Shown in pieces: positions 3 through 34,132 of a stretch of DNA of 64,000 bases. The notes below the pieces were generated by a model that saw only the letters and a list, made by a program, of their open reading frames with translations, made no database searches and was not told the DNA's origin. The DNA comes from a virus: the IMG/VR virus record IMGVR_UViG_3300037067_022550, one strand, 5' to 3'. A program made the position numbers and the translations under genes. Position 1 is the stretch's first letter. Each line of letters opens with the position of its first letter.

Positions 3-584
3 TTTTGTCCTGAACTTAGAGTAATTATTAATACAGCCAAGCCAAATTGTGTTAAAACAAAAATTAGTTGGTTAGAAAATAATAATCGTGTAGAATTTGA
101 TTGCTATTATTTACGTATTTGGGTTGAAAACTTTGGAAGAGCAAGAGCAAAGGATGTTGAAGTATTTTTATCAAAAATTCTTATTAAAAATGGTGAAGGA
201 AAATATGTTGAAGTGGATTCGTTTTCTCCCATGAATTTAAAATGGTCTTATAATAATGAGTCCTGCTTAGACGGAATATCTCCAGGAATTGGAAGGCATT
301 GTGATTTAGCCCATGTTATTGATCCAAAATATAGATCCAATTTGTCGCCTCTTAATGGATTACAAAACCATCCTAAAGATAAAACAATTTTAGAATTAGA
401 TCTTGTTTTTCCTCTCAATACAAATGACCATCTCCTATTTGGTGTAGATTATATGTTGGAGATTAAAATCTCTTCTTCTAATGCAAAAATTGTTTGCAAT
501 AAAATAAAAATTACTCATACTGGAAAATGGAATATTGATAAAGAGAAAATGTTTCCGGAGTGCGTAAGCGTAATGAATGTTTAA
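3..584 (+). CDS. hypothetical protein, 5' end lies outside the window
   Basis: Frame 3 is open from nt 3 and runs into the listed ORF 213..584. No recognisable motif. Confidence 0.4.
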   Translation, partial: FCPELRVIINTAKPNCVKTKISWLENNNRVEFDCYYLRIWVENFGRARAKDVEVFLSKILIKNGEGKYVEVDSFSPMNLKWSYNNESCLDGISPGIGRHCDLAHVIDPKYRSNLSPLNGLQNHPKDKTILELDLVFPLNTNDHLLFGVDYMLEIKISSSNAKIVCNKIKITHTGKWNIDKEKMFPECVSVMNV

Positions 585-800: not shown

Positions 801-1391
801 ATGCCATCAGGATACACAGCAGAAATAGAAAAAGGAATTAGTTTTGAAAGATTTGCCCTTAATTGTTCAAGAGCTTTTGGTGCTTTAATTTCAATGAGGG
901 ATGATCCTATGGATACTCCCATTCCAGACAAAATAGAACCAAGTGATTATCATTTTAAAGAATGGCAAAGAGCCAGAAAAGATTACGAATTGGCAAAAAA
1001 AATTACTTTAAAAAATGCAAAAGAATTAGCAAAAAATGATTATGAAAATGCAGTAAAATACAACAAGAAAAGCATTGCTGAAAAAAATGCTTTAAAAATT
1101 AAATATGAACAAATGCTTTCTAAAGTAATGAAATGGGTTCCTCCTTCAAAAGATCATGTTGCTTTTAAAGATTTTATGATAGACCAAATAAAAAAGTCAA
1201 TAGATTGGGATTGTGATACTAAATACAATAAAGATCCAGTATTGAAGTCTGCAAAAGAATGGCTTAAAGAAAAAATAGAAAGAAATAAAAATGATATAGA
1301 ATACCATTTTAAAAATCACAAAGAAGAATTAGAAAGATGTGCTAATAGAACAAAATGGATCCAAGATTTAAAAAATTCATTGAATGTTTAA
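801..1391 (+). CDS. hypothetical Lys-rich protein, first gene of the + strand operon
   Basis: Strong SD AAAGGAGAAAAGTT before the ATG. 196 aa with no motif recognised. Confidence 0.5.
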   Translation: MPSGYTAEIEKGISFERFALNCSRAFGALISMRDDPMDTPIPDKIEPSDYHFKEWQRARKDYELAKKITLKNAKELAKNDYENAVKYNKKSIAEKNALKIKYEQMLSKVMKWVPPSKDHVAFKDFMIDQIKKSIDWDCDTKYNKDPVLKSAKEWLKEKIERNKNDIEYHFKNHKEELERCANRTKWIQDLKNSLNV

Positions 1392-1422
1392 TAAATTAAA
1401 ACACAATAAATTGAGATATAAA

Positions 1423-2100
1423 ATGAAACCAACATTTTTGCTTACCAGTGGAGGAACTAAAGTCAAGATTGATATGGTGAGATCAATAACTAATATGTCT
1501 AATGGAACATTTGGCAGTAGAATTGCAGAGCATATTTTATTTTATGGCTATAAATTATCTTTTTTACATGCAAAATATTCAAAAACTCCAGAAAGATTGA
1601 TTGGAGGAGCTGCACTGTCAGAAAATTATGTTCCTTTGGATTTTGTTACATTTGAAGACTATGAAAAGAGTTTAAACGAAGAGCTAAAAAAGAAACCGGA
1701 CATCATTATTCTTGCAGCTGCTGTTTCAGATTATGGTGTTGAAAACTATATTGACGGTAAAATTCGTTCAAATGATGCATTGGTCATTAGATTAAAACCT
1801 TTACCAAAATTAATTAGTCAAGTCAGGGAGAAATGCCCTTCTTCCATTATTTGTGGTTTTAAACTTTTAGTTAATTCCACTGAAAAAGAGCTGAGAGAAG
1901 CTGCTATTGAATCTCTATTAAAAAATAAACTTGATTTAGTTGTTGGGAATGATCTAAGAGACATTAAAGCAGGAAAACACAAATTGTTAATAGTTGAAAA
2001 TAAAAGCGATAGTGTTGTTTCTACTACATATGAAAAATATTTACCAGAAGTAGTACTAGATAAATGCATGGAACATTGGCAATTAGGAGTATTGAGGTGA
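1423..2100 (+). CDS. coaB: phosphopantothenate--cysteine ligase (CoaB domain protein)
   Basis: LLTSGGTKVKIDMVRSITNMSNGTFGSRIAE and ILAAAVSDY match the CoaB nucleotide-binding motifs. Start chosen at MKPTF (nt 1423) rather than the ORF-track start at 1384. Confidence 0.7.
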   Translation: MKPTFLLTSGGTKVKIDMVRSITNMSNGTFGSRIAEHILFYGYKLSFLHAKYSKTPERLIGGAALSENYVPLDFVTFEDYEKSLNEELKKKPDIIILAAAVSDYGVENYIDGKIRSNDALVIRLKPLPKLISQVREKCPSSIICGFKLLVNSTEKELREAAIESLLKNKLDLVVGNDLRDIKAGKHKLLIVENKSDSVVSTTYEKYLPEVVLDKCMEHWQLGVLR

Positions 2101-2750
2101 AAAAAAATTTACTAATTGGTTTTACTGGAAGTGTTGCTTCAATCTTATATGAAAAGATTTGCAAGTCTTTTTATAAAGAATATAATGTTAAGGTTGTAAT
2201 GACAGAATCATCTAGACAATTTGTAAATGATACTGTTTTAAATGATATGGAAATAAAAGTTTTTTCAGATTATGACGAATTTTATGAACCTATTAATTTT
2301 GTTAATTCAACAGAAATGGTATTGAGATTAGATAATAAAAATGGAAGATACTGTAACAAAAATGACCCCATTCTACATATTCAACTTAGAGATTGGGCTG
2401 ACTGTTTACTAATTGCTCCTTGTTCTGCTAATACATTGGCTAAAATTTCCAATGGCATTTGTGATAATTTGCTTACATCAATTGTAAGAGCATGGGATTT
2501 CTCACTTAAAAAACAATTGCCTTGTAATAGTAATAAAAAAATTATTATTGCACCAGCTGCAAATTGTAAAATGTGGTGTCATCCAATTACACAAGAACAT
2601 ATTGATAAAATTGGGAAATGGGGAATTTGTGTTATTGATCCTGTTGAAAAGAAGCTAGCTTGTGGAGAAACTGGAATTGGGGCCATGGCAGACATTAGCA
2701 CAATTGTTCATACTGTTAAACAATATTTTTCTAATGAAACGGAACAATAA
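2097..2750 (+). CDS. coaC: phosphopantothenoylcysteine decarboxylase flavoprotein (CoaC / HFCD family)
   Basis: LLIGFTGSVASI, IAPCSANTLAKISNGICDNLLTS, IIIAPAAN and ACGETGIGAM motifs. AGGAG lies 7 nt before a GTG start at 2097, which overlaps the coaB stop as GTGA. Confidence 0.7.
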   Translation: MKKNLLIGFTGSVASILYEKICKSFYKEYNVKVVMTESSRQFVNDTVLNDMEIKVFSDYDEFYEPINFVNSTEMVLRLDNKNGRYCNKNDPILHIQLRDWADCLLIAPCSANTLAKISNGICDNLLTSIVRAWDFSLKKQLPCNSNKKIIIAPAANCKMWCHPITQEHIDKIGKWGICVIDPVEKKLACGETGIGAMADISTIVHTVKQYFSNETEQ

Positions 2751-2753
2751 AAA

Positions 2754-3785
2754 ATGTCAACAATTAAAATATATGATTGTTCTAATTCTGAAGAGAGACC
2801 CATTCATAGAAAATCAAGTCTTTGCCCTTTTATGAATGATATTTGCAGTGATTTAATGGAATATGTTGCCAAAGAAAAATCAGAACAATTTGAATATGTT
2901 ATAGATCCTGTAGATGCCGATGTTATATTTACTAATGATGTTTATCCCCAAAGCATACTTGATTTAGGAAAACCTACGGTTAAAAGAATGGATGGAGTTT
3001 TTTGGCAAAAAGAATTTCAAGACAGAAATAAAAAATATTTACAAGCTGCATATAACTCTTCTAAAATTATTTTTATTTCTAAATATAGTCAAGAATGTTT
3101 TTATAATTTATACCATTGTTTATATAATTTATACCCATTTTGTGATTTTAAAAGTAAATCCAAGGTAATTCTTAATGATGCTCCAGAAGACATATTTTAT
3201 CCACGTTGGGGTAGATTTTGTCTGCCAAAACCAATACACCAAATTACCTTTGCAGCTTGTGTTTCAAATTGGGAAAGAAAAGAAAAGAGATTTAATGATT
3301 TAATTAAGTTTGCAAAAATATGTTCAAATATAAAAGATATAGACATTTATATTAAATTAATTGGGGAATGTAGCCATAAATTACCTTCAAATGTATGGGC
3401 TAATGGATATTGCGAAAACAGAAAAGATATTGCAGACATATTAAGAGTTTCAGATGCTTTTATAAATTTATCTTTTAAAGATGCTGCCCCAAAAACAGTT
3501 TGTCAAGCGATTAGATGCGGATTGCCAGTACTCTATGCCAATTCAGGTGGAGTTGGAGAAATTGTTGGAGAATATGGAGTGCCAATATTTGATAATGAAA
3601 AAGAATTTCAAGCAGTTTATGAATTAAAAGAAAAAGATATTTATTTGTCATTAAATAGTTTTATAGAAAAAATATATGTTCTTCAAGAATCTTTACTTGT
3701 CAAACAAGATCCTTTTCAAAAAGAATTTATTTCTTACAAAAAAACACTTGACAATTACCTATCTGTTTTTTCAGAAGTGGCTTGA
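2754..3785 (+). CDS. glycosyltransferase (GT4-like C-terminal motif)
   Basis: The C-terminal CGLPVLYANSGGVGEIVGEYGVPIFD resembles the GT-B group-1 donor-binding motif. The rest is not recognised. Confidence 0.4.
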   Translation: MSTIKIYDCSNSEERPIHRKSSLCPFMNDICSDLMEYVAKEKSEQFEYVIDPVDADVIFTNDVYPQSILDLGKPTVKRMDGVFWQKEFQDRNKKYLQAAYNSSKIIFISKYSQECFYNLYHCLYNLYPFCDFKSKSKVILNDAPEDIFYPRWGRFCLPKPIHQITFAACVSNWERKEKRFNDLIKFAKICSNIKDIDIYIKLIGECSHKLPSNVWANGYCENRKDIADILRVSDAFINLSFKDAAPKTVCQAIRCGLPVLYANSGGVGEIVGEYGVPIFDNEKEFQAVYELKEKDIYLSLNSFIEKIYVLQESLLVKQDPFQKEFISYKKTLDNYLSVFSEVA

Positions 3786-3848
3786 TTTTCTTCTTGACTT
3801 TATAATTTATATTGCTATCTTTCTTTTAAAGAAACAAAAAAATAAAGG

Positions 3849-4844
3849 ATGAAAAAAATGAAGTTAGAAGAAATTGGATTTTATACTCTTAACGATAAAC
3901 GTGCAATTAACTTGAGCGATAATTCTCCAATGCAGAGATGCGAAATGCTTTTAACAGGCAATTGCAATTTTTCTTGTCCTTATTGTAGGGGATTTAAGAA
4001 TTTTAGCGAAAAGTGCGGAACAATTTCAAGAAAAACAGCCTTAATGGTTCTTGATATTTGGATTAATGATGGACTAAAAAATGTAAGGTTTTCTGGTGGA
4101 GAACCAACATTATATCCTCACTTATTTGAATTGGTAGAACGCTGCAAAAAAGGCAATGTTTCCCACATTGCAATTTCTAGTAATGGTTCTGCTGATACGG
4201 ATGTATACAAAAAATTAATAGACTTGGGAGTAAATGACTTTTCTATATCATTAGATGCTTGCTGTTCATCCTTTGCTGATAAAATGGCAGGGGTTGATGG
4301 TTACTTCAATAAGGTAACAAATAACATTAGGACGATATCAAAATTAACTTACGTAACTGTTGGTGTTGTTTTAAATGAAGCCAATATTGATGAAGTTATA
4401 AAAATAACAAAATTTGCAGATGAATTGGGGGTTTCTGATATTAGACTTATTTCTTCTGCCCAATACAATAGACTATTGGATCACGTTAAGATTATAGACA
4501 ACGATATATTGGATAGACACCCTATTTTAAAATACAGGATAAACAATGTTAAGAAATATAAAAATGTAAGAGGAATTTCAGAATTGGGTTGTAACCGTTG
4601 CTATATGGTTATAGATGATTCTGTTGTAGCTGGTAACGGAGACGATGCCTGGCATTTCCCTTGTGTAATCAATTTAAGAGAAGGCGGAAAAGCAATAGGC
4701 AGAGTTGGACCAAATATGAGAAAAGAAAGAATAGAATGGTTTAAGACCCATAATTCTTTTAGTGACCGTATATGTAGGACAAACTGCCTGGACGTTTGCC
4801 AAGATTACAATTGCAAATGTATGGAACTAAACAAAAATTTTTAG
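3849..4844 (+). CDS. radical SAM enzyme (MoaA-like core, Cys-rich C-terminal domain)
   Basis: CNFSCPYC (CX3CX2C) and GGEPTLYP motif. Cys-rich C-terminus CNRCYMV...WHFPC. SD AAGGA precedes the start. Confidence 0.65.
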   Translation: MKKMKLEEIGFYTLNDKRAINLSDNSPMQRCEMLLTGNCNFSCPYCRGFKNFSEKCGTISRKTALMVLDIWINDGLKNVRFSGGEPTLYPHLFELVERCKKGNVSHIAISSNGSADTDVYKKLIDLGVNDFSISLDACCSSFADKMAGVDGYFNKVTNNIRTISKLTYVTVGVVLNEANIDEVIKITKFADELGVSDIRLISSAQYNRLLDHVKIIDNDILDRHPILKYRINNVKKYKNVRGISELGCNRCYMVIDDSVVAGNGDDAWHFPCVINLREGGKAIGRVGPNMRKERIEWFKTHNSFSDRICRTNCLDVCQDYNCKCMELNKNF

Positions 4845-4856
4845 TTTGTTAGAAAA

Positions 4857-5657
4857 ATGATATCAATTCTTTTTAGAAATAGCTGGCACCATAATGGGGA
4901 ACTTGAAACAGGAGAAGAATTTGAAGTTTCCAAGAAATATTTTCCTGTTTATGAGTACCGTTCTCAGGTGACAGAAAATTCATTAATTATAGGTAGATAT
5001 TCTGTTTTGCCGTTCTATGAAGAATTAGAAAAAGAACTATCTCTAAAAAAATCACTACTTATAAATTCCTACAAACAGCATAGATATATAGCTGATATAA
5101 CTAATTATTGTGAAGATCTTAATGGTTTTACGCCAAAAACCTATACTCAATGGATGAATATTAAGGAAGGCAAATATATAGTCAAAGGCAAAACAAACAG
5201 CAGAAAATTTAGGTGGGATACGCACATGTATGCTCCCAATAGAGATAGCCTTTTACGGGTCATTAGAAACCTATTTACAGACCAAATGATAGCCGATCAA
5301 GGAGTTGTCGTAAGAGATTATATTCCATTGAAAAAACTAGGAGAAGGAATCAACGGTTTGCCTATTTCAGCAGAATGGCGTTGTTTTTGTTATAAAGATA
5401 AGGTTTTAGCAACAGGTTTTTATTGGAGTAATTTTGAAGAACTTTCGCCTGGAAACTTACCTCAAGAAGGGGTTGACTTCTTAAAAAAAGTTACTGCCAT
5501 TGTATCAAAAAAAGTAAATTTCTATGTGGTTGATGTTGCTCAGAAAGAAAATGGGGAATATATGGTAGTAGAATTGAATTGTGGAATGATGTCGGGATTG
5601 AGTTGTGTAGACCCCAACGAAATGTATGGCAACTTAAAAAAAGCCTTAAACAGTTAA
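4857..5657 (+). CDS. ATP-grasp family enzyme (RimK / glutathione synthetase-like)
   Basis: GKYIVKGKTNSRKF, VVVRDYIP and GEYMVVELNCGMMSG resemble the ATP-grasp motifs KP..GS.G.GV and EvN..PG. Confidence 0.45.
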   Translation: MISILFRNSWHHNGELETGEEFEVSKKYFPVYEYRSQVTENSLIIGRYSVLPFYEELEKELSLKKSLLINSYKQHRYIADITNYCEDLNGFTPKTYTQWMNIKEGKYIVKGKTNSRKFRWDTHMYAPNRDSLLRVIRNLFTDQMIADQGVVVRDYIPLKKLGEGINGLPISAEWRCFCYKDKVLATGFYWSNFEELSPGNLPQEGVDFLKKVTAIVSKKVNFYVVDVAQKENGEYMVVELNCGMMSGLSCVDPNEMYGNLKKALNS

Positions 5658-6431
5658 GTGATTATTTGCATGTACAGAATAATGTTCATCTTCCCACATA
5701 GGAATAGTGTTTGTATAATGAAAACATAATTTCTGTTGCTCTGGGTCTACTAAGTCAAAAGTATAGCAAGGTTTTATATGGTGTAAATGCCACTTTCTTA
5801 TTCCATCATTGGCTAAAGTCATTCCATGCTTAAATAAAGATTTGATATAATTTTTAAAGAATTCTGATGTACAAACTAAACACTCAACGATATGTAATGT
5901 TTTTTTAACTCTTTGGTCTTTCAAAGCCATATTCATCCTACAACGTAAAATCTTAAGCATTCTAAAAGACGGGTCTATTTTGCGTTTGATTTTTTCGTAT
6001 TTTGATTGAGCAATACGTATTTCTTTTTTGTGTTTAAAGCGGTATTGTTTTTCTCTAAATAAAATTTCATCTCTATGTTCCATTCTGTGTTTTTTTCTCT
6101 TTAGACTATTTTTTTCTTTATTTTTTAAATATTGTTGTTTTTTCTTAATTCTACGTTCATATTTATGTTTTAGTTCCCACTGTTTGAGCTTTAATTTCCT
6201 TTGTTCCTTATGCGTTGATATCCATTGGTTGTTTCTTAAATCAATTTTATCTTTATGTTTTAAATAATTTTGTTTATGCCACAAACTAATTTTATCTTTT
6301 TTATCTATTTTGTGTTGCTTATCACAAAATTTGCAATTACATTTCAGCCCATCAGAACGATATTTATCTTTGTAAAAATCATTGACGTTTCTTTCATGGT
6401 GACATTTAGAACATACTTTTGTGTCATTCAT
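5646..6431 (-). CDS. HNH endonuclease with N-terminal Zn finger and basic K/R-rich repeats
   Basis: CSKCHH...CNCKFC Zn finger, then K/R/H-rich repeats. C-terminal WHLHHIKPCY...HANNH is an HNH-like motif. Confidence 0.55.
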   Translation of the reverse strand: MNDTKVCSKCHHERNVNDFYKDKYRSDGLKCNCKFCDKQHKIDKKDKISLWHKQNYLKHKDKIDLRNNQWISTHKEQRKLKLKQWELKHKYERRIKKKQQYLKNKEKNSLKRKKHRMEHRDEILFREKQYRFKHKKEIRIAQSKYEKIKRKIDPSFRMLKILRCRMNMALKDQRVKKTLHIVECLVCTSEFFKNYIKSLFKHGMTLANDGIRKWHLHHIKPCYTFDLVDPEQQKLCFHYTNTIPMWEDEHYSVHANNHLTV

Positions 6432-9121: not shown

Positions 9122-9196
9122 AATTAAAATCCTTTTTTAAATTATTCACTAAAAAAAATAAAAATCCTGTTAAATAATATCAAAGGATAGGTAGGA

Positions 9197-11914
9197 CTAT
9201 AATCTCCAATAAACAAAACCGTTTTTAATGCACTCTTCTTTATCATAGAGACCTTTTATATCTATAATAATAGGAGGATGAGAAGACATTTCTTTGAGTT
9301 TGTTTAATGGATATTTTTCTTTAAACATGTTGTGCTTAACAGCCACAATAATAGCTTCATAGGGCTTATTTAAACACAAATCATTATAATTTATAAGTGG
9401 GATATTATATTCTTTATATACTCTATTTATATCTGCTTTGGGATCATAAACAAATGGATTGGTATGATATTTTTTTAATTCTTTGTAAATATCCCCAATT
9501 CTTGAATTTCTTATATCACTTATATTTTCCTTAAAAGTAATGCCCATAATAAGAATATTAGCACCATTAATTTTTTTACCTAATTCTATTAATTTTTTAA
9601 TAGTATTTTCTGCTATATATTTTCCCATATTATCATTTGTTCTTCTACCAGACAAAATTACTTCTGGATGATAGCCCAATATTTCTGCTTTATAAGTAAG
9701 ATAATATGGATCAACGCCGATACAATTGTGAGAAATTATTCCAAAATCCGTAACAATAGTTTTTGTTTTTTCAACTTCTATGGAAAAAACTTCTTGCTCA
9801 TTATTTTCAATAAAAACTTCTTTTACTGGAACTAACCATAATCCATCTGAAAATTCATATTTAATAAGTGGATTTCTTCTGCAATTATTTATATGATTAC
9901 CTATCTTTAAATAATTTTTATCACCCAAAAGTGGAGATATTTTAGATAATATTTTCTGACCACCCAGCAAAGTCAAATGATTTACTTTCGGATTAACTTT
10001 ATTAATATAGGTAGAATAGTGTATTCCATTACTAAGCAATATATAGCAGATTTGGTTAAACATAACTTTACTAGAAGAACTAAAAGTCATTACACAACAA
10101 TTAAAATTATCTCTATTATCTTGCTTTAAACTACCGTCACCTCTAAAAATTCCTGACAAAATAGATAAACATAACTTTTTGTTGTATAAAATGAGAGATG
10201 GAATATTTTTTTCATAACAATTACTTCCACATTTAAAAACTTCTTTAATTAAAAATCCCAATATATTAGAAGAAATTTTAACCTGAATGCAATGGTCTTT
10301 CTTATTATGCCAAATTGAATAAGATATTCCTAATTTTTTAGCAATAGATATTACATCATCAATATATTGCCGTTCGTTTTCATTAAAAGTAAATCTAGTT
10401 CTTATAGAGTTATCTTTTGAAATACATCCCTCTGACAAATAATATCCTATAAATCTGGAAAAATATTCATCAATTTCAATAATATTAGAAATTTTATTAA
10501 AAGACGGGCCTTTGCCTGTAACTAAATAAATATTATCTCTAGAAACTGGCATACTTTTGTTTTTTTCTAGTTCTATAAAAACTTTAAGCGGAAGATAATC
10601 CCATTTAAAATAATTGTCTGGTTTTATTGTTTTTGATTTTTTTAATCCAAATATTTTTTTATAATCTATCCACTTCCCACTTTTTAATTTAACTCTTGTT
10701 TTTGAAATGAGACTATCGGGAATAACATTAATTAAATCAATGTTTGTTGATGTTTGTTCTTGTGGTAAATCCTCATTATAAAATAAGGGTATTTTATCGC
10801 CGACAGCAATATTTTTAGCATGTTTAACTATTAACTTTTCGTTTTCAAAAACAAGTAAGGGATGTTTGTCAGTTACAGATATTTTATGGTTTTTTTCGGT
10901 TGTTACAGTAACTATTTTGTCATAGGTAGCTTTTGAGCATCCAGAAATTTTACTAAATAATAATTTTCGCGAATCAACATCAAAAGAAAGAATTTCATCA
11001 GAATTTTCTTTTTCAAATCCATTGACATATTCTTTAATGGTTTGAGTTTTAATGATATTATTTTTTCTAATAGTAATGAGATGATTTTTAGTAAAGCAAT
11101 GGCCTCCTACAAGCCCAGGTTCATATTTGTGGAAATTCCATTTTGTTCCAGCAGCAGCTAAAACATCTTGGGTGTCTATGTTCATCTTGTGAAAAATCAA
11201 AGCTAATTCATTTACAAGAGCAATGTTTAAATCCCTTTGTACGTTTTCTATAACTTTAGCAGCTTCTGCTGTCCTGATATTTGGAGCCATATGTATTTTT
11301 GCTTCAATTACACTACCATATAAATCATAAATAAACTTTGCTGTTTCTTCATCATCTCCAGAAACTATTTTATTTGTATTTTTAACACAATGAACTTTAT
11401 CGCCAGGATTTATTCTTTCTGGAGAATATCCTACATGAAAATCTTTTTTCCAAACATAGTTTTCTTTAGAAAGTAAGGGGACACATATTTCTTCTGTTAC
11501 GCCAGGATAGACGGTAGATTCATAGATCACCAATATTTTCTTTTTTGTTTCAGAATAATTAAAAGTAGAAATAGTTTTTGTAGCAGATATAATTGGGGTT
11601 AAATCTGGTTGTTTATCTTCATGAATGGGAGTAGGAACAGTAACAATAAAGACATCCATATTTCTTAACATAGCAATGTCTTCTAATGAGATATATTTAA
11701 TGTATGATGCTTGTAATTCTTGTATGGAAACATCTTCATTTCTATCATAATTATTTTTTAATTCTTCAATTCTTTCCTTATAATTATCAAAACCATAAAC
11801 ATTATATTTTTTAGAAAACAAAATTGCTAATGGCAACCCTACATACCCAAGTCCCACGATGCAAATATTTTTTGTTCCAGATCCAATCAAAAAATCAGAA
11901 ATATTATAATTCAT
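9197..11914 (-). CDS. UDP-N-acetyl-D-mannosamine / UDP-sugar 6-dehydrogenase (WecC/TviB-like) interrupted by a 458-aa intein
   Basis: N-terminal Rossmann motif GLGYVGLP. N-extein ends ...LVGGH and C-extein begins CIGVDPYYL, restoring the GGHCIGVDPYY active site. Exteins are 272 + 175 aa. Confidence 0.7.
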   Translation of the reverse strand: MNYNISDFLIGSGTKNICIVGLGYVGLPLAILFSKKYNVYGFDNYKERIEELKNNYDRNEDVSIQELQASYIKYISLEDIAMLRNMDVFIVTVPTPIHEDKQPDLTPIISATKTISTFNYSETKKKILVIYESTVYPGVTEEICVPLLSKENYVWKKDFHVGYSPERINPGDKVHCVKNTNKIVSGDDEETAKFIYDLYGSVIEAKIHMAPNIRTAEAAKVIENVQRDLNIALVNELALIFHKMNIDTQDVLAAAGTKWNFHKYEPGLVGGHCFTKNHLITIRKNNIIKTQTIKEYVNGFEKENSDEILSFDVDSRKLLFSKISGCSKATYDKIVTVTTEKNHKISVTDKHPLLVFENEKLIVKHAKNIAVGDKIPLFYNEDLPQEQTSTNIDLINVIPDSLISKTRVKLKSGKWIDYKKIFGLKKSKTIKPDNYFKWDYLPLKVFIELEKNKSMPVSRDNIYLVTGKGPSFNKISNIIEIDEYFSRFIGYYLSEGCISKDNSIRTRFTFNENERQYIDDVISIAKKLGISYSIWHNKKDHCIQVKISSNILGFLIKEVFKCGSNCYEKNIPSLILYNKKLCLSILSGIFRGDGSLKQDNRDNFNCCVMTFSSSSKVMFNQICYILLSNGIHYSTYINKVNPKVNHLTLLGGQKILSKISPLLGDKNYLKIGNHINNCRRNPLIKYEFSDGLWLVPVKEVFIENNEQEVFSIEVEKTKTIVTDFGIISHNCIGVDPYYLTYKAEILGYHPEVILSGRRTNDNMGKYIAENTIKKLIELGKKINGANILIMGITFKENISDIRNSRIGDIYKELKKYHTNPFVYDPKADINRVYKEYNIPLINYNDLCLNKPYEAIIVAVKHNMFKEKYPLNKLKEMSSHPPIIIDIKGLYDKEECIKNGFVYWRL
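9725..11098 (-). mobile_element. intein with LAGLIDADG homing endonuclease domain, inserted at the catalytic Cys of the dehydrogenase
   Basis: Begins with Cys (CFTKNH), ends HN, followed by the +1 Cys. LAGLIDADG-like blocks FIGYYLSEGCISKD and LSGIFRGDGSLKQ. Boundaries computed from codon positions. Confidence 0.7.
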
Positions 11915-12315
11915 TTTTTTAATCTTTCTGTTAATAAATCTCTTTCATGAGCAATATGCCTTCTTTTTGTTAAATCTCTATCGTATTTTTCTCTTTCTTT
12001 TGGAGACAACTTTAAATATAAATTAGCATCAAAATCTAATGATTTGTGAAACTCATTTTTTCTAATCCACAATCTATCCCAAAAAAGAATTAAATTATTA
12101 AAAAAACAATTAAATATTCTATTAAATTTAAAAGACCTAGAGTTCCATCCCACCCACGCATCGCTTTCAGATAAACATTGAGGGCCTCTTGATGAACAAC
12201 TACGGCACATAACGCTACACCATTCCTGATGATCTCCACCAACTCCCCAACCAATACCCAAAAACAATGATCCGCAATGGGGGCAGGGTTTTCTCATGTC
12301 TATAAAATTATTCAT
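11911..12315 (-). CDS. Lar-family restriction-alleviation-like Zn-ribbon protein with a long C-terminal extension
   Basis: KPCPHCGS...CSVMCRSCSSRGP...AWVGWNSRS resembles the Lar (PF14354-like) pattern. Overlaps the topA end and the dehydrogenase start. Confidence 0.4.
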   Translation of the reverse strand: MNNFIDMRKPCPHCGSLFLGIGWGVGGDHQEWCSVMCRSCSSRGPQCLSESDAWVGWNSRSFKFNRIFNCFFNNLILFWDRLWIRKNEFHKSLDFDANLYLKLSPKEREKYDRDLTKRRHIAHERDLLTERLKK

Positions 12316-14299
12316 CTTTTTCAATAAATTTGCACTTTGGGAAAGCAGAACAACCTATAAAAGTGTTCCCGCTTTTTTTGGCAATTCTTTCAACTAGATC
12401 TGCACCACATTCAGGGCATTTTCTGCCGACCTTTTTAAATGTTTTCTTTTCTTTTAAAGAAAAAGAACCGTCTTCATTTTTTTGAAAAACGCTTTTACAT
12501 CCTGGATATTTGTTACAGGAATAAAATATTCCATACATTCCACTAACTTCAACTATGTCACCTTCTCTACAAACAGTGCATTTTTGTCCAACCATCTTTT
12601 GTTCTTTTTTTCCCATGGTATTTTCTTTTGCTCCTTTTATTTCATTTGTTAATACATTATATACATTTTGAACAATATCTAAATATGTTTTTTTACCATC
12701 TGCAATTAATTCTATGTCTTCTTCCAAACCTGCAGTAAATTTAACATCCATAAAAAAATCTTTAAATCTTGGATTGAGATAATCACAAATCTTCATGCCT
12801 AATTCTTGTGCTACAAATCCTCCGTTTTTGCCTTTTTCTTTTGTAACATAACCTTTATCTTGAATGCTTTTAATAATTGTGGCTCTGGTAGAAGGTCTTC
12901 CTATGCCGTCTGCTTCCATTTTTACAATCAAACTTCCATCATTATATCTTTTAGGAGGCTGTGTAGTATGTTTTGTTTTTTTAATATCCTTTAGATTAAG
13001 TTTCTCACCTTCATTAGCATTAGGCAAAATTTCTTCTTCTGTTTTAGAATATTTATAAACTTTAGACCATCCATCAAATCTAATGGTTTGTCCCTTTGCA
13101 ATTAATTCGTGTTTAGAATCTGTTTTAACTTTATAGACAACCGTATCTACTACCATTGGAGACATTTGACAGGCTAAAAACCTATCTCTTATTAATTCAT
13201 ACATTTTTTTATGTTCTGAATCTAATCCGCTTCCTTCATCTTCAATATGAGTTGGACGAATGCACTCGTGAGCTTCTTGAGCAGCTGCTGAAGACTTTTT
13301 AGCGTAGGAATTCGGTTTAGAAGGCAAATATTTAGAATCAAATTTTTCTTTTATAAAACCTATTACAGAATCCAATGCTTCTTGAGAAATAGTATAAGAA
13401 TCTGAACGAATATAACTAACCTTACCTATCTCATAAAGATGTTGAGCTATTTGCATGGTTTTGGTTGCATTGAATCCAAATAAAGAAGAACAAGAAGATT
13501 GCAATGAAACAGTATCAAAAGGTGGTTGAGCTTTCCTTTCTTTTGTTTCTCTTTCTATTTTATCTAATGTAAATGTAGATTTTTTTAGTGCTTCAAAAGA
13601 ATTAGTGGCTAGTTTTTCATCAATAAATCTATTTTCTTTTTCTTTAGTTACTACTTTTGCCCAAAATTCCCCATTATCATTTTGCAAAAGACATTCTACA
13701 TACCAAAAATCAGTTGGGATAAATGCTTTTATCTCTTTTTCTCTTTCACATATAAACTTTAAAGCTATGGATTGCACTCTACCTGCAGAAGTTCCTTTGC
13801 CAACTGAAAACCAGAGTACCGGAGAAACTTTATAACCGATTAGTCTATCTAAAACTTGTCTTGCTTTTTGAGCATCCACAAGATTATTATCATCATTTAT
13901 ATCTCTTCTATTTTTAATGGCAGTTTCAATTGCTTTTTTAGTTATTTCATTAAAAGAAATTCTAAAACACTTTTTCTTGTCTTTTTCACTTAAAAGATCA
14001 TATATATCCTTAGAAATTCTGGAACCTTCTTTATCTGGATCTGATGCTAAATAGATTAATGGGCTTTTGCCAGCATATTCTTTTATTTTCTTTACAACAT
14101 CTTTTTTTCCGCTAATGATTTGGCAAGTAGGAATAAATCCGTTTTTTATATCAATATTTAATCCCTTCTTAGGTATTTCCATTATGTGGCCGACTGAGGC
14201 TATAACATCATAGTCTGTCCCTAAAAAAGATTTTATCTTTCCACATTTATTAGGCGACTCAACTATAACTAGTTTATTACTCATTTTTTTTATCTCCAA
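12308..14299 (-). CDS. topA: DNA topoisomerase I (type IA) with two C-terminal C4 zinc ribbons
   Basis: TOPRIM N-terminus LVIVESPNKCGKIKSFLG. Zn ribbons CTVCREG...CNKYPGCKS and CPECGADL...CSAFPKCKF. Confidence 0.8.
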   Translation of the reverse strand: MEIKKMSNKLVIVESPNKCGKIKSFLGTDYDVIASVGHIMEIPKKGLNIDIKNGFIPTCQIISGKKDVVKKIKEYAGKSPLIYLASDPDKEGSRISKDIYDLLSEKDKKKCFRISFNEITKKAIETAIKNRRDINDDNNLVDAQKARQVLDRLIGYKVSPVLWFSVGKGTSAGRVQSIALKFICEREKEIKAFIPTDFWYVECLLQNDNGEFWAKVVTKEKENRFIDEKLATNSFEALKKSTFTLDKIERETKERKAQPPFDTVSLQSSCSSLFGFNATKTMQIAQHLYEIGKVSYIRSDSYTISQEALDSVIGFIKEKFDSKYLPSKPNSYAKKSSAAAQEAHECIRPTHIEDEGSGLDSEHKKMYELIRDRFLACQMSPMVVDTVVYKVKTDSKHELIAKGQTIRFDGWSKVYKYSKTEEEILPNANEGEKLNLKDIKKTKHTTQPPKRYNDGSLIVKMEADGIGRPSTRATIIKSIQDKGYVTKEKGKNGGFVAQELGMKICDYLNPRFKDFFMDVKFTAGLEEDIELIADGKKTYLDIVQNVYNVLTNEIKGAKENTMGKKEQKMVGQKCTVCREGDIVEVSGMYGIFYSCNKYPGCKSVFQKNEDGSFSLKEKKTFKKVGRKCPECGADLVERIAKKSGNTFIGCSAFPKCKFIEKDE

Positions 14300-32959: not shown

Positions 32960-34132
32960 TTATTTGTCAATATTATCAATACCAGTATTGTTTTCACAAG
33001 AAGATGGTGGTATTTTAACTGAATATATTGAAGTTGTTGTTCCCCAACCACCAGGAACTGCATACATAAAAACACCGTCTTTATTTTTTTTAGGATATTC
33101 ATATTCAGGATAAACAACTCCATATACCATAACTTCATTAAAAACTCCATATAGAATTCTTTGGCCAACCATTTCTTTCGTTTTAAATTGTTTTTTAGTG
33201 GATTTATTTTCATTAATTTCAACATATTTATTTTTACAATGGTCTTTACAACATTTAAAAGATTCAAATCTGTATTTATTTAATCTATTTTGCCATATAT
33301 ATTTTAATGGATTTTCTTTATAATCTTTATATCCCTTATCAGATCCGTAATCACAATCTGTTTCATCTAAAATATTACCAACGACAACATCATTAATATT
33401 TACCCAAGACCTCATGCTTAAACAAGGAACTACATATCCATTATGAAGTATTCCAATTGAACACATTCCAGCACTACATTTTCCACAATTAGCGTTATCT
33501 GCTATTACTATTTTAATTCCGTTACTAATAGAATTTGAAATTTTTTCAGAAAAGAAATTTAAAGCTTTTGAATTGTTATAAATAGCCGATACATTATCTT
33601 CTTCTTTATACATTGTATATTGAATTTGCCAAGTTAAATTATTTTCTTTAACAAAACCTTCTATTTCGTCATACATAAAAATATTTTGCAAATTAAAATT
33701 ACTAATAATTGTTGACTTTTTTAATAAATCTTTATTAAAAGAAGTTATTAATAATTTTAATTCTTTTTCTGTGTTAACAGACAATCCAATCCAATCATAT
33801 AGCTCTAAAATATTATCAATAATTAAATTTGTATAAGATTTTGAATTTACAATACTCTTTGGATTTATAATGATTTTACATTTAACTTCTTTATCTTTCA
33901 ATATTTCTGTAACAATTTTGTGAGTTTCATAATTAACCAGAAGAGGATCTCCACCAGACATATCTATTTCTTCTGGACTAAATTTTGCAATATTTTTTGC
34001 AATTTGGATTATTTTTTCTGAGTCTACGGGGTAATTCCAAGATTCTTTAGAACCGCAATATTCACATCCGTTATTACATTTACCTGTCATTTCCCAAATA
34101 ATTTCTTTAAGTTTTAAATGACTATTTTGCAT
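32960..34132 (-). CDS. radical SAM enzyme with SPASM-like Cys-rich domain
   Basis: GKCNNGCEYCGS (CX3CX2C) and GGDPLL. Later CGKCSAGMCSIGILHNGYVVPC cluster. Confidence 0.6.
   Translation of the reverse strand: MQNSHLKLKEIIWEMTGKCNNGCEYCGSKESWNYPVDSEKIIQIAKNIAKFSPEEIDMSGGDPLLVNYETHKIVTEILKDKEVKCKIIINPKSIVNSKSYTNLIIDNILELYDWIGLSVNTEKELKLLITSFNKDLLKKSTIISNFNLQNIFMYDEIEGFVKENNLTWQIQYTMYKEEDNVSAIYNNSKALNFFSEKISNSISNGIKIVIADNANCGKCSAGMCSIGILHNGYVVPCLSMRSWVNINDVVVGNILDETDCDYGSDKGYKDYKENPLKYIWQNRLNKYRFESFKCCKDHCKNKYVEINENKSTKKQFKTKEMVGQRILYGVFNEVMVYGVVYPEYEYPKKNKDGVFMYAVPGGWGTTTSIYSVKIPPSSCENNTGIDNIDK

Follow-up and report, generated by a model that had tools for sequence, protein, structure and literature searches.

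A six-gene run of a jumbo phage, with CoaB, CoaC, glycosyltransferase, radical SAM and ATP-grasp genes, is probably a juxtaposition of separately inherited units

The genes analysed here form a run of six + strand genes at positions 801-5657 of a 64,000-nucleotide stretch of virus DNA (IMG/VR record IMGVR_UViG_3300037067_022550; the whole stretch is called the window below), encoding a lysine-rich protein of family phrog_8905, CoaB, CoaC, a glycosyltransferase (GT), a radical S-adenosylmethionine enzyme (rSAM) and an ATP-grasp ligase. The closest described counterparts of CoaB and CoaC are the phosphopantothenoylcysteine synthetases and decarboxylases (PPCS and PPCDC) of human, Arabidopsis (AtHAL3a) and Streptococcus (CoaB and CoaC), which have the same two domains and the same catalytic motifs on separate polypeptides; the window pair differs from these, and from the bacterial CoaBC protein (Dfp), in being phage-encoded, in belonging to a phage-specific clade and in having CoaB before CoaC. 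Phage NAD+ systems (KVP40 NadV/NatV; jumbo-phage NAD, PMC11662467) likewise place the supply of a cofactor on large phages, the cofactor here being CoA and not NAD. The ATP-grasp ligase shares its Pfam R2K matches, conserved lysines and fold with the R2K clade (Cdc123, R2K.2 and R2K.3; PMC4431377) and with LysX, ArgX and RimK, and differs from the described R2K systems in standing without a GNAT, R2K.2 or ARG partner. For R2K enzymes a role in conflicts between phage and host has been predicted, in which they would ligate amino acids to proteins (PMC4431377), and R2K ATP-grasps have already been noted in jumbo phages (PMC7824862). The rSAM is no more than 19-20% identical to BlsE, DesII, MoaA and viperin, which act on nucleosides, nucleotides or nucleotide-sugars, and to the twitch/SPASM peptide maturases SkfB and PqqE, and the pattern of its conserved C-terminal cysteines (CX2CX17C plus CX3CX3C) is its own.

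A preliminary description of the window had read the five enzymes as one pathway distinct from plain CoA biosynthesis. We think it probable instead that the run consists of juxtaposed, separately inherited units, probably co-transcribed, which do not make up one pathway: CoaB-CoaC, GT-rSAM, the R2K ATP-grasp and phrog_8905. The domain identities, the conserved motifs and the separate distribution of the units are observed; the enzyme activities, the substrates of GT-rSAM and of the ATP-grasp, and co-transcription are inferred. Nothing in the block is a categorically new kind of system; the phage CoaB/CoaC module with its M23-like domain and the rSAM module with variable partners, including the GT, both apparently have not been described.

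Distribution of the components among phage genomes

Loci around homologues of each component were gathered, and the other components were sought within 10 kb. In IMG/VR, CoaC lay immediately or nearly immediately downstream of CoaB in 18/19 CoaB loci, while GT, rSAM, R2K_3 ATP-grasp or UDP-glucose/GDP-mannose dehydrogenase (Ugd) genes were found in 0/19, and no other neighbour family recurred in more than 3/23 loci. The GT and rSAM genes were linked to each other: 14/17 GT loci had an rSAM gene, often directly adjacent, and 8/80 rSAM loci had a GT gene (the rSAM loci came from a profile-derived scan, a single-protein scan having given no matches). CoaB, CoaC or R2K_3 genes were found in 0/17 GT loci and 0/80 rSAM loci. 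Similarly, CoaB, CoaC, GT or phrog_8905 genes were found in 0/80 ATP-grasp loci, and clustering of the ATP-grasp neighbours gave no partner present in more than 12/84 loci.

The closest relative with genomic context (L168/L169; CoaB 65%, CoaC 66%, ATP-grasp 78% and topoisomerase 78-80% identical) has CoaB, CoaC and ATP-grasp genes contiguous, without GT or rSAM, and its phrog_8905 homologue (54% identical) lies ~4 kb downstream of the ATP-grasp gene, not upstream of CoaB. In the 485-kb genome LR745208 all four families are present at three separate places (ATP-grasp at ~104 kb, rSAM and GT adjoining at 147-149 kb, CoaB at ~245 kb), only rSAM and GT being adjacent, and in a 213-kb phage the CoaB-CoaC pair lies ~59 kb from the rSAM gene. 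Homologues of phrog_8905, 30-41% identical, occur in cultured Pseudomonas, Bacillus, Sinorhizobium, Caulobacter and Streptomyces phages; the gene is independent of the other five and not their constant partner. Cross-module linkage is not the rule, and the separate distribution of the components therefore argues for a mosaic of four units (phrog_8905; CoaB-CoaC; GT-rSAM; ATP-grasp), phrog_8905 presumably being an unrelated gene. Phage genes are normally packed tightly on one strand; the lesson for jumbo phages is that such packing is no sign of a shared pathway. The genes of the run and those on either side are as follows.

213..584, + strand: 3' part of a gene for a 252-aa protein, its start cut by the window edge (L001:4970-5728, equal to window -175..584); no Pfam hit
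801..1391, + strand: lysine-rich 196-aa protein, phrog_8905 (PHROG 3.2e-33); no Pfam hit
1423..2100 (alternative ATG 1384), + strand: CoaB-type PPCS, monofunctional (PF04127, 9.6e-30)
2097..2750 (alternative ATG 2064), + strand: CoaC-type PPCDC, HFCD flavoprotein (PF02441, 4e-34)
2754..3785, + strand: divergent GT-B/GT4-like protein (PF00534, 4.2e-07; PF13692, 3.3e-06; both marginal)
3849..4844, + strand: radical SAM enzyme (Radical_SAM PF04055, 5.3e-21)
4857..5657, + strand: R2K-clade ATP-grasp ligase, stand-alone (R2K_3 PF14243, 1.4e-21)
5646..6431, - strand: convergent gene for a 261-aa Cys-rich endonuclease VII/HNH-like protein (weak PHROG endonuclease and endonuclease VII matches)

The CoaB-CoaC pair and its M23-like companion

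CoaB scored 104.2 bits against PF04127 (gathering cut-off 22) and CoaC 118 bits against PF02441 (gathering cut-off 22.7). The CoaB start is likely ATG 1423, because homologues open with MK.L.TSGGT. The GTG of CoaC (2097-2099) overlaps the TGA of CoaB (2098-2100) in a GTGA, with AGGAG at 2085-2089, 7 nt ahead of the GTG. The order coaB-coaC and the overlap at 2097-2100 had been given correctly in the preliminary description; its account of the pair as a reverse-ordered split Dfp does not hold, since both proteins belong to the monofunctional eukaryote/Streptococcus type and CoaB followed by CoaC is the usual order throughout the phage CoaB clade.

PPCS enzymes are defined by a GGT..ID.VR.I.N.S.G phosphate/acyl-cytidylate motif, AAAV(S/A)D(Y/F) and the lysine of K-I-x-S/K. 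The best PDB match of CoaB was 2gk4, a stand-alone Streptococcus pneumoniae protein (5.6e-25), followed by yeast and human PPCS. Aligned to the PDB PPCS entries, the window protein contains TSGGTKVKIDMVRSITNMSNGTFG, LAAAVSDY and GKIRS; overall it retains the GGT..ID.VR.I.N.S.G, AAAVSDY, GKIRS and GFKLL motifs, and among 41 homologues S26, G28, G31, A100, S102, D103 and K113 were invariant and N24 nearly so. Its 913 relatives are all stand-alone proteins of ~206-300 aa, nearly all on phage-like contigs.

CoaC is much closer to eukaryote-type PPC decarboxylases (AtHAL3a, 144.6 bits, 3e-41; human PPCDC, 132.6 bits, 1.4e-37) than to the peptide-cysteine decarboxylases EpiD (~50 bits, 2.2e-12) and MrsD (~41 bits, 1.1e-09) or to actinobacterial CoaBC (42 bits, 5.8e-10). 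In AtHAL3a the catalytic residues are His90, the Asn of PXMNXXMW and the reducing Cys175 in the ACGD.G.GAM clamp. The corresponding motifs of CoaC could be aligned: the His of LHIxLR, the Asn of PAAN..MW, and the clamp LACGETGIGAMA with its Cys (ACGxxGxGAM). In pairwise HMMER alignments with 1e20, 1mvl and 1qzu, LHIQLRDWAD, APAANCKMW and LACGETGIGAMAD stood opposite LHIELRRWAD, APAMNTLMW and LACGDYGNGAMAE. The clamp cysteine of PPCDC reduces the ene-thiol and so completes the reaction to a saturated cysteamine; EpiD lacks this cysteine. As the catalytic motifs of both proteins are kept, plain phosphopantetheine synthesis is the best reading of the pair, contrary to the preliminary statement that the gene set does not look like plain CoA biosynthesis.

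The clade is essentially phage-only: a scan of one genome per species (185,579 species) gave just two metagenome-assembled genome (MAG) contigs, and in one of these CoaB, CoaC and M23 are arranged as in phages. Matches in INPHARED records labelled as Listeria, Staphylococcus and Enterococcus phages were considered and not used; these were mostly short unannotated fragments, 25-33% identical and resembling cellular coaB/coaC. A literature search on phage CoaB/CoaC (CoaBC) found no description.

From the conserved motifs we infer that CoaB and CoaC together make 4'-phosphopantetheine, standing in for host CoaBC. CoaB would activate 4'-phosphopantothenate with a nucleoside triphosphate and attach cysteine; the flavoprotein CoaC would then oxidatively decarboxylate the cysteine moiety and re-reduce the product by way of its clamp cysteine. 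In this manner the pair could replace the single host protein CoaBC and keep CoA supplied during infection. NAD-salvage genes adjoin these modules: nicotinate phosphoribosyltransferase (NAPRTase) and isochorismatase/nicotinamidase-like genes lie just upstream of the window (L001:2947-4921) and in L168 (L168:10135-12102; on the opposite side from phrog_8905), and nicotinamide phosphoribosyltransferase (NAMPT) and NUDIX genes lie next to CoaB in L185 (L185:7630-9765). This adjacency suggests a role for CoaB and CoaC in cofactor maintenance during infection, by the same logic as that of the NAPRTase and nicotinamidase-like genes. NAD-salvage genes are also present at L003:11620-13925 and L005:11228-13512, with a PARP-domain gene and an ATP-grasp gene beside them. 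If the phage pair is active, it would replace exactly one host protein, CoaBC, and CoA joins NAD+ and nucleotides as cofactors whose supply large phages take over. No CoA-depleting defence system is known to us, and a literature search on such systems found nothing relevant.

The phage CoaC differs from known PPCDC in bearing two insertions and in that most of its relatives are fused to an M23-like zinc domain. In 17/19 CoaB loci CoaC was a fusion protein of 345-423 aa with an M23-like domain at its C-terminus, and in one more the two parts were split and adjacent (fused or adjacent forms are in L172-L190, for example L189:10687-11724, as well as L167:7474-8583 and L210). The fusion was also found in the 735-kb genome LR756501, in a 144-kb ENA contig (ERZ1426840) and in one MAG contig, and PF01551 was detected on 10/27 long CoaC representatives from a library of 1.84 billion proteins. 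In the window phage the domain is free-standing (L001:1512-2063, ~3.1-3.6 kb upstream of window position 1 and 4.4 kb upstream of the six-gene block) and is 35-43% identical to the CoaC-fused domains. In the alignment the three zinc ligands are kept (the His and Asp of HxGVD and the second His at the HxH position) and both LytM-type catalytic histidines are substituted (YGE, MLH), the roles of these residues being those generally known for such domains. The CoaC-M23 link looks like a conserved Rosetta-stone association without obvious rationale, and the fusion to a zinc-binding, catalytically altered domain suggests some further activity or a role in targeting.

Three points weigh against plain CoA synthesis. 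It does not account for the near-universal M23-like domain on phage CoaC. Both proteins score below the NCBIfam equivalog cut-offs (CoaB: TIGR02114 coaB_strep, 129.5 against 217.2 bits, and NF005231, 133.1 against 265 bits; CoaC: TIGR02113 coaC_strep, 111.2 against 261.4 bits, and TIGR00521 coaBC_dfp, 123.3 against 219.7 bits), which is expected because the viral clade is divergent. Further genes of the CoA pathway were not seen in the window stretches listed with Pfam hits (~1-35.6 kb and 44.6-56 kb).

The first two of these points would fit an alternative in which CoaB and CoaC add cysteine to, and decarboxylate it on, some other carboxylate, such as a peptide, a protein or a cell-wall peptide, together with the M23-like domain. 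HFCD enzymes such as EpiD and MrsD, which are among the weaker PDB matches of CoaC, use peptidyl-cysteine substrates, and fusion or adjacency of CoaC and M23 is found in 18/19 loci and in LR756501, ERZ1426840 and L210. We nevertheless consider this alternative unlikely: CoaC scores far higher against AtHAL3a than against EpiD or MrsD, the clamp cysteine is kept, the M23-like domain has lost both catalytic histidines while keeping its zinc ligands, and no precursor-like open reading frame (ORF) ending in Cys was found. The suggestion that the locus makes a ribosomally synthesised and post-translationally modified peptide (RiPP) likewise found no candidate precursor. The gaps are too small, and neither of the two small ORFs examined near them ends in Cys: the sole ORF at the 63-nt gap 3786-3848 (3676-3852, 58 aa) overlaps the 3' end of the GT gene, is of low complexity and has no Cys, and the ORF at 560-739 does not end in Cys.

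The GT-rSAM pair, the ATP-grasp ligase and the case for a shared pathway

The GT is a marginal Pfam match (Glycos_transf_1 PF00534, 30.1 bits against a cut-off of 26.4; PF13692, 27.8 against 27). The EX7E motif in the C-terminal Rossmann domain is a feature of GT4 retaining glycosyltransferases. The window protein lacks it: the corresponding stretch reads (R/K)DAAPKTVCQA, in which D243, A244 and K247 are invariant (alignment A5) and Q replaces the second Glu. KRMDG is also invariant in this alignment.

The rSAM scored 75.9 bits against PF04055 (cut-off 29.5). Among 35 homologues the CX3CX2C cysteines C39, C43 and C46 are invariant, and ten arginines are invariant in the homologue alignment. 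The family is large (3188 relatives, typically 55-65% identical, mainly on phage contigs). It falls below every curated family threshold, NCBIfam equivalogs being missed by a wide margin. Against MoaA (TIGR02666) it scored 86.3 bits where 284 are required, the match being limited to residues 35-205; the profile covers only the N-terminal core of PDB MoaA, and the cysteine spacing CX2CX17C differs from the CX2CX13C of MoaA. Against viperin (NF038283) it scored 44.3 bits where 180 are required, and a PADLOC match to pVip (1e-14) was confined to residues 34-184; apart from this match of the generic rSAM core, PADLOC gave no defence-system match. The SPASM domain PF13186 was not matched, and the cysteine pattern differs from the seven-Cys motif. 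For an SPASM-type peptide maturase, no RiPP recognition element was found, and none of the ORFs examined within or beside the intergenic gaps was a candidate precursor. Profile searches to classify the enzyme, which the preliminary description had proposed, did not put it in MoaA, viperin or SPASM; it belongs to an uncharacterised and widespread phage family. An AlphaFold2 model of the rSAM was confident (pLDDT 87), and Foldseek searches with it returned BlsE first (1.9e-12), then SkfB, viperin, DesII, PqqE and MoaA. The core of the enzyme is MoaA/BlsE-like. Because the margins between BlsE, SkfB, PqqE and MoaA are small, the substrate class is left between nucleoside or nucleotide-sugar and peptide. 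A second, unrelated rSAM gene is present at window 32960-34132 (- strand; 390 aa), with a weak SPASM match, by a dUTPase region.

In other phages the rSAM gene has different neighbours. RtcB and Rnl-type RNA ligases make up 13/133 close neighbours; a 140-aa mini-GGDEF protein occurs in 18 loci (PF00990, 4.5e-11); and a novel ~90-aa domain (FDWxTWRxGS..CRPK..AVMF..WTHLT) occurs either as a separate protein or joined to one or other end of the rSAM. Where the GT is present, the loci additionally encode a CYTH-like protein and an Rnl1-like ligase. Loci with the 90-aa-domain, mini-GGDEF, CYTH-like or Rnl1-like partners include L127:10995-11671, L106:8669-9094, L125:10001-11245, L167:10023-11489 and L204:823-1317. 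None of these partners (RNA ligases, mini-GGDEF, 90-aa domain, CYTH-like protein) is present in the window, where searches for the mini-GGDEF and 90-aa domains gave nothing below an E value of 0.2. A literature search on phage rSAM enzymes with RNA ligases found nothing relevant. The GT-rSAM unit is a conserved pair with the rSAM as its core and the GT as an optional accessory. On the evidence of the best folds, the ten invariant arginines and the recurrent neighbours, we suggest with low confidence that the rSAM carries out a radical reaction and the GT then transfers a glycosyl group, the most likely substrate being a nucleotide, a nucleotide-sugar or RNA-linked. A family of more than 3000 strongly conserved proteins with no assigned chemistry and with variable partners (GT, mini-GGDEF, the 90-aa domain, the CYTH-like protein and RNA ligases) is a tractable target in the search for new radical chemistry on nucleotides or RNA.

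The ATP-grasp ligase scored 77.9 bits against Pfam R2K_3 (cut-off 26.3) and also matched R2K_2; its nearest folds are LysX/ArgX, RimK and GshB. Lysines K110 and K117 are invariant, and the family retains the classical ExN as E239-L-N241-x-G (both in alignment A1). The described hallmark of R2K.3 is ExGD, which replaces ExN in the last strand (PMC4431377); the window family, which keeps ExN, differs in this respect and may be a distinct R2K_3 subfamily. Many of its 389 relatives are on large phage-like contigs (up to 358 kb). The enzyme is predicted to be a carboxylate-amine ligase acting on protein or peptide, and as a stand-alone unit it would probably join an amino acid to the carboxylate of a protein or peptide, in line with the published R2K prediction (PMC4431377). 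The GT4-like, CX3CX2C radical SAM and ATP-grasp identities given in the preliminary description are confirmed by these searches, as is the position of the latter two enzymes outside housekeeping families, all NCBIfam equivalog cut-offs having been missed widely; for the ATP-grasp, the profile search that it had called for gave the R2K_3 assignment.

The reading of the run as separate units has evidence on its other side, which we collect here. LR756501 holds the CoaC-M23 fusion, CoaB, rSAM and GT within 10 kb, with ~0.9 kb between CoaB and rSAM and the GT 5 kb off; the proteins are 31-52% identical to those of the window, and gene order and strands differ. In L168 the ATP-grasp gene directly follows CoaC. 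Proximity is seen in two of four informative genomes. The IMG/VR scans were based on short peptide patterns, with at most 80 loci each and a view of ±10 kb. Because of the clustering in LR756501 and the CoaC-ATP-grasp adjacency in L168, some functional link between units is possible. Conserved co-occurrence across relatives, as expected of a biosynthetic cluster, was not found apart from these two cases.

These two cases also bear on the one integrated pathway of the preliminary description. In such a pathway CoaB and CoaC would make a cysteamine- or phosphopantetheine-bearing intermediate, from which the rSAM, GT and ATP-grasp would build a new thiol cofactor or glycoconjugate, or which they would place on DNA or RNA. 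The five genes lie tightly packed on the same strand, with terminator-like matches no commoner than in shuffled sequence, and the very divergent LR756501 still has CoaC, CoaB, rSAM and GT together. The combination also recalls bacillithiol and mycothiol synthesis, which combine a GT4 with a cysteine ligase; the BshA match was weak (E = 0.0013). Such a pathway nevertheless seems quite improbable to us: cross-module linkage was 0/19 for CoaB, 0/80 for rSAM, 0/17 for GT and 0/80 for R2K_3 loci, the closest relative (L168) has no GT-rSAM between CoaC and R2K_3, the four families are dispersed in LR745208, and the CoaC motifs are true PPCDC motifs. Gene identities, CoaB-CoaC order and non-housekeeping status have thus stood, and a single pathway distinct from CoA synthesis has not; we regard the earlier interpretation as partly upheld, and not as unsupported, because of LR756501.

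A further alternative, attractive because BlsE is the top fold match of the rSAM, would join the GT-rSAM unit to the Ugd gene at 9197-11914: a BlsE-like rSAM would decarboxylate a nucleotide-glucuronate to a pentose, and the GT would then use this pentose to modify DNA, a virion protein or the cell surface. This we hold to be doubtful to a similar degree. The margin of BlsE over SkfB, PqqE and MoaA is small; Ugd was found within 10 kb in 0/80 rSAM and 0/17 GT loci (0/97); a Ugd remnant persists in L168, which has neither rSAM nor GT; and most rSAM loci have no GT, the rSAM sitting by RNA ligases or mini-GGDEF.

It is very improbable that the co-localisation in the window phage and LR756501 is functional in the sense that 4'-phosphopantetheine, or an acyl group capped with cysteamine, is made by CoaB and CoaC and then used by the rSAM and GT, possibly with the ATP-grasp, either for conversion to a new glycosylated thiol cofactor or for attachment to the ends of RNA or DNA. 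If true, this would mean that the phage makes a modification derived from CoA, for which no precedent is known. Attachment to RNA or DNA ends would agree with the RNA ligases, RtcB and CYTH-like proteins that recur beside the rSAM in other phages.

Gene layout and neighbouring genes

The window is AT-rich (~29% GC), and a phage-like contig from a metagenome (ENA k141_727378, 74.8 kb) contains a stretch identical to it; the window proteins are also encoded on a 263,965-bp contig of the Joint Genome Institute (JGI). All six ORFs that the preliminary description had given as tightly packed and co-directional on the + strand at 801-5657 were present, with intergenic gaps of 31, -4, 3, 63 and 12 nt along the run, and the first gene is, as it had said, a lysine-rich protein of unknown function (phrog_8905, no Pfam hit). 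On the source contig the + strand run extends at least 5.7 kb upstream of the window start, through genes for an RNA ligase, the M23 peptidase-like protein, a GIY-YIG endonuclease, NAPRTase, a 73-aa ORF, an isochorismatase-family protein and the 252-aa unknown. The six-gene boundary is therefore partly an artefact of where the window starts, as the + strand array continues upstream of 801; the block belongs to a longer co-directional array of accessory genes in an AT-rich jumbo phage (source contig ~264 kb).

Co-transcription of the six-gene run is plausible from its layout. Promoter-like matches (sigma-70 consensus) and terminator-like matches are as frequent as in shuffled sequence and are therefore uninformative on transcript structure. 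The element CTTGACTTTA, which lies upstream of both 801 and 3849, was considered as a promoter; the idea was dropped because its 7 matches in the window are below the 8.8 expected by chance. The GC content at third codon positions is 0.268 for the rSAM and 0.270 for the ATP-grasp gene, and 0.14-0.20 for phrog_8905, CoaB, CoaC and GT; this difference inside the block may reflect differing gene histories.

The convergent gene at 5646-6431 is probably a mobile homing-type endonuclease. Three paralogues of it (L168:4607-5338, 9153-9860 and 12128-12898) flank the CoaB-CoaC-ATP-grasp and NAPRTase modules in L168, and their positions fit module shuffling driven by homing endonucleases. Further along the window, the Ugd gene (9197-11914, - strand; 905 aa) is interrupted by a LAGLIDADG intein; in L168 only a C-terminal Ugd fragment was called. 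RtcB was called in L168 as two adjoining ORFs (L168:3343-4610; 164 and 240 aa) and may be split, frameshifted or interrupted.

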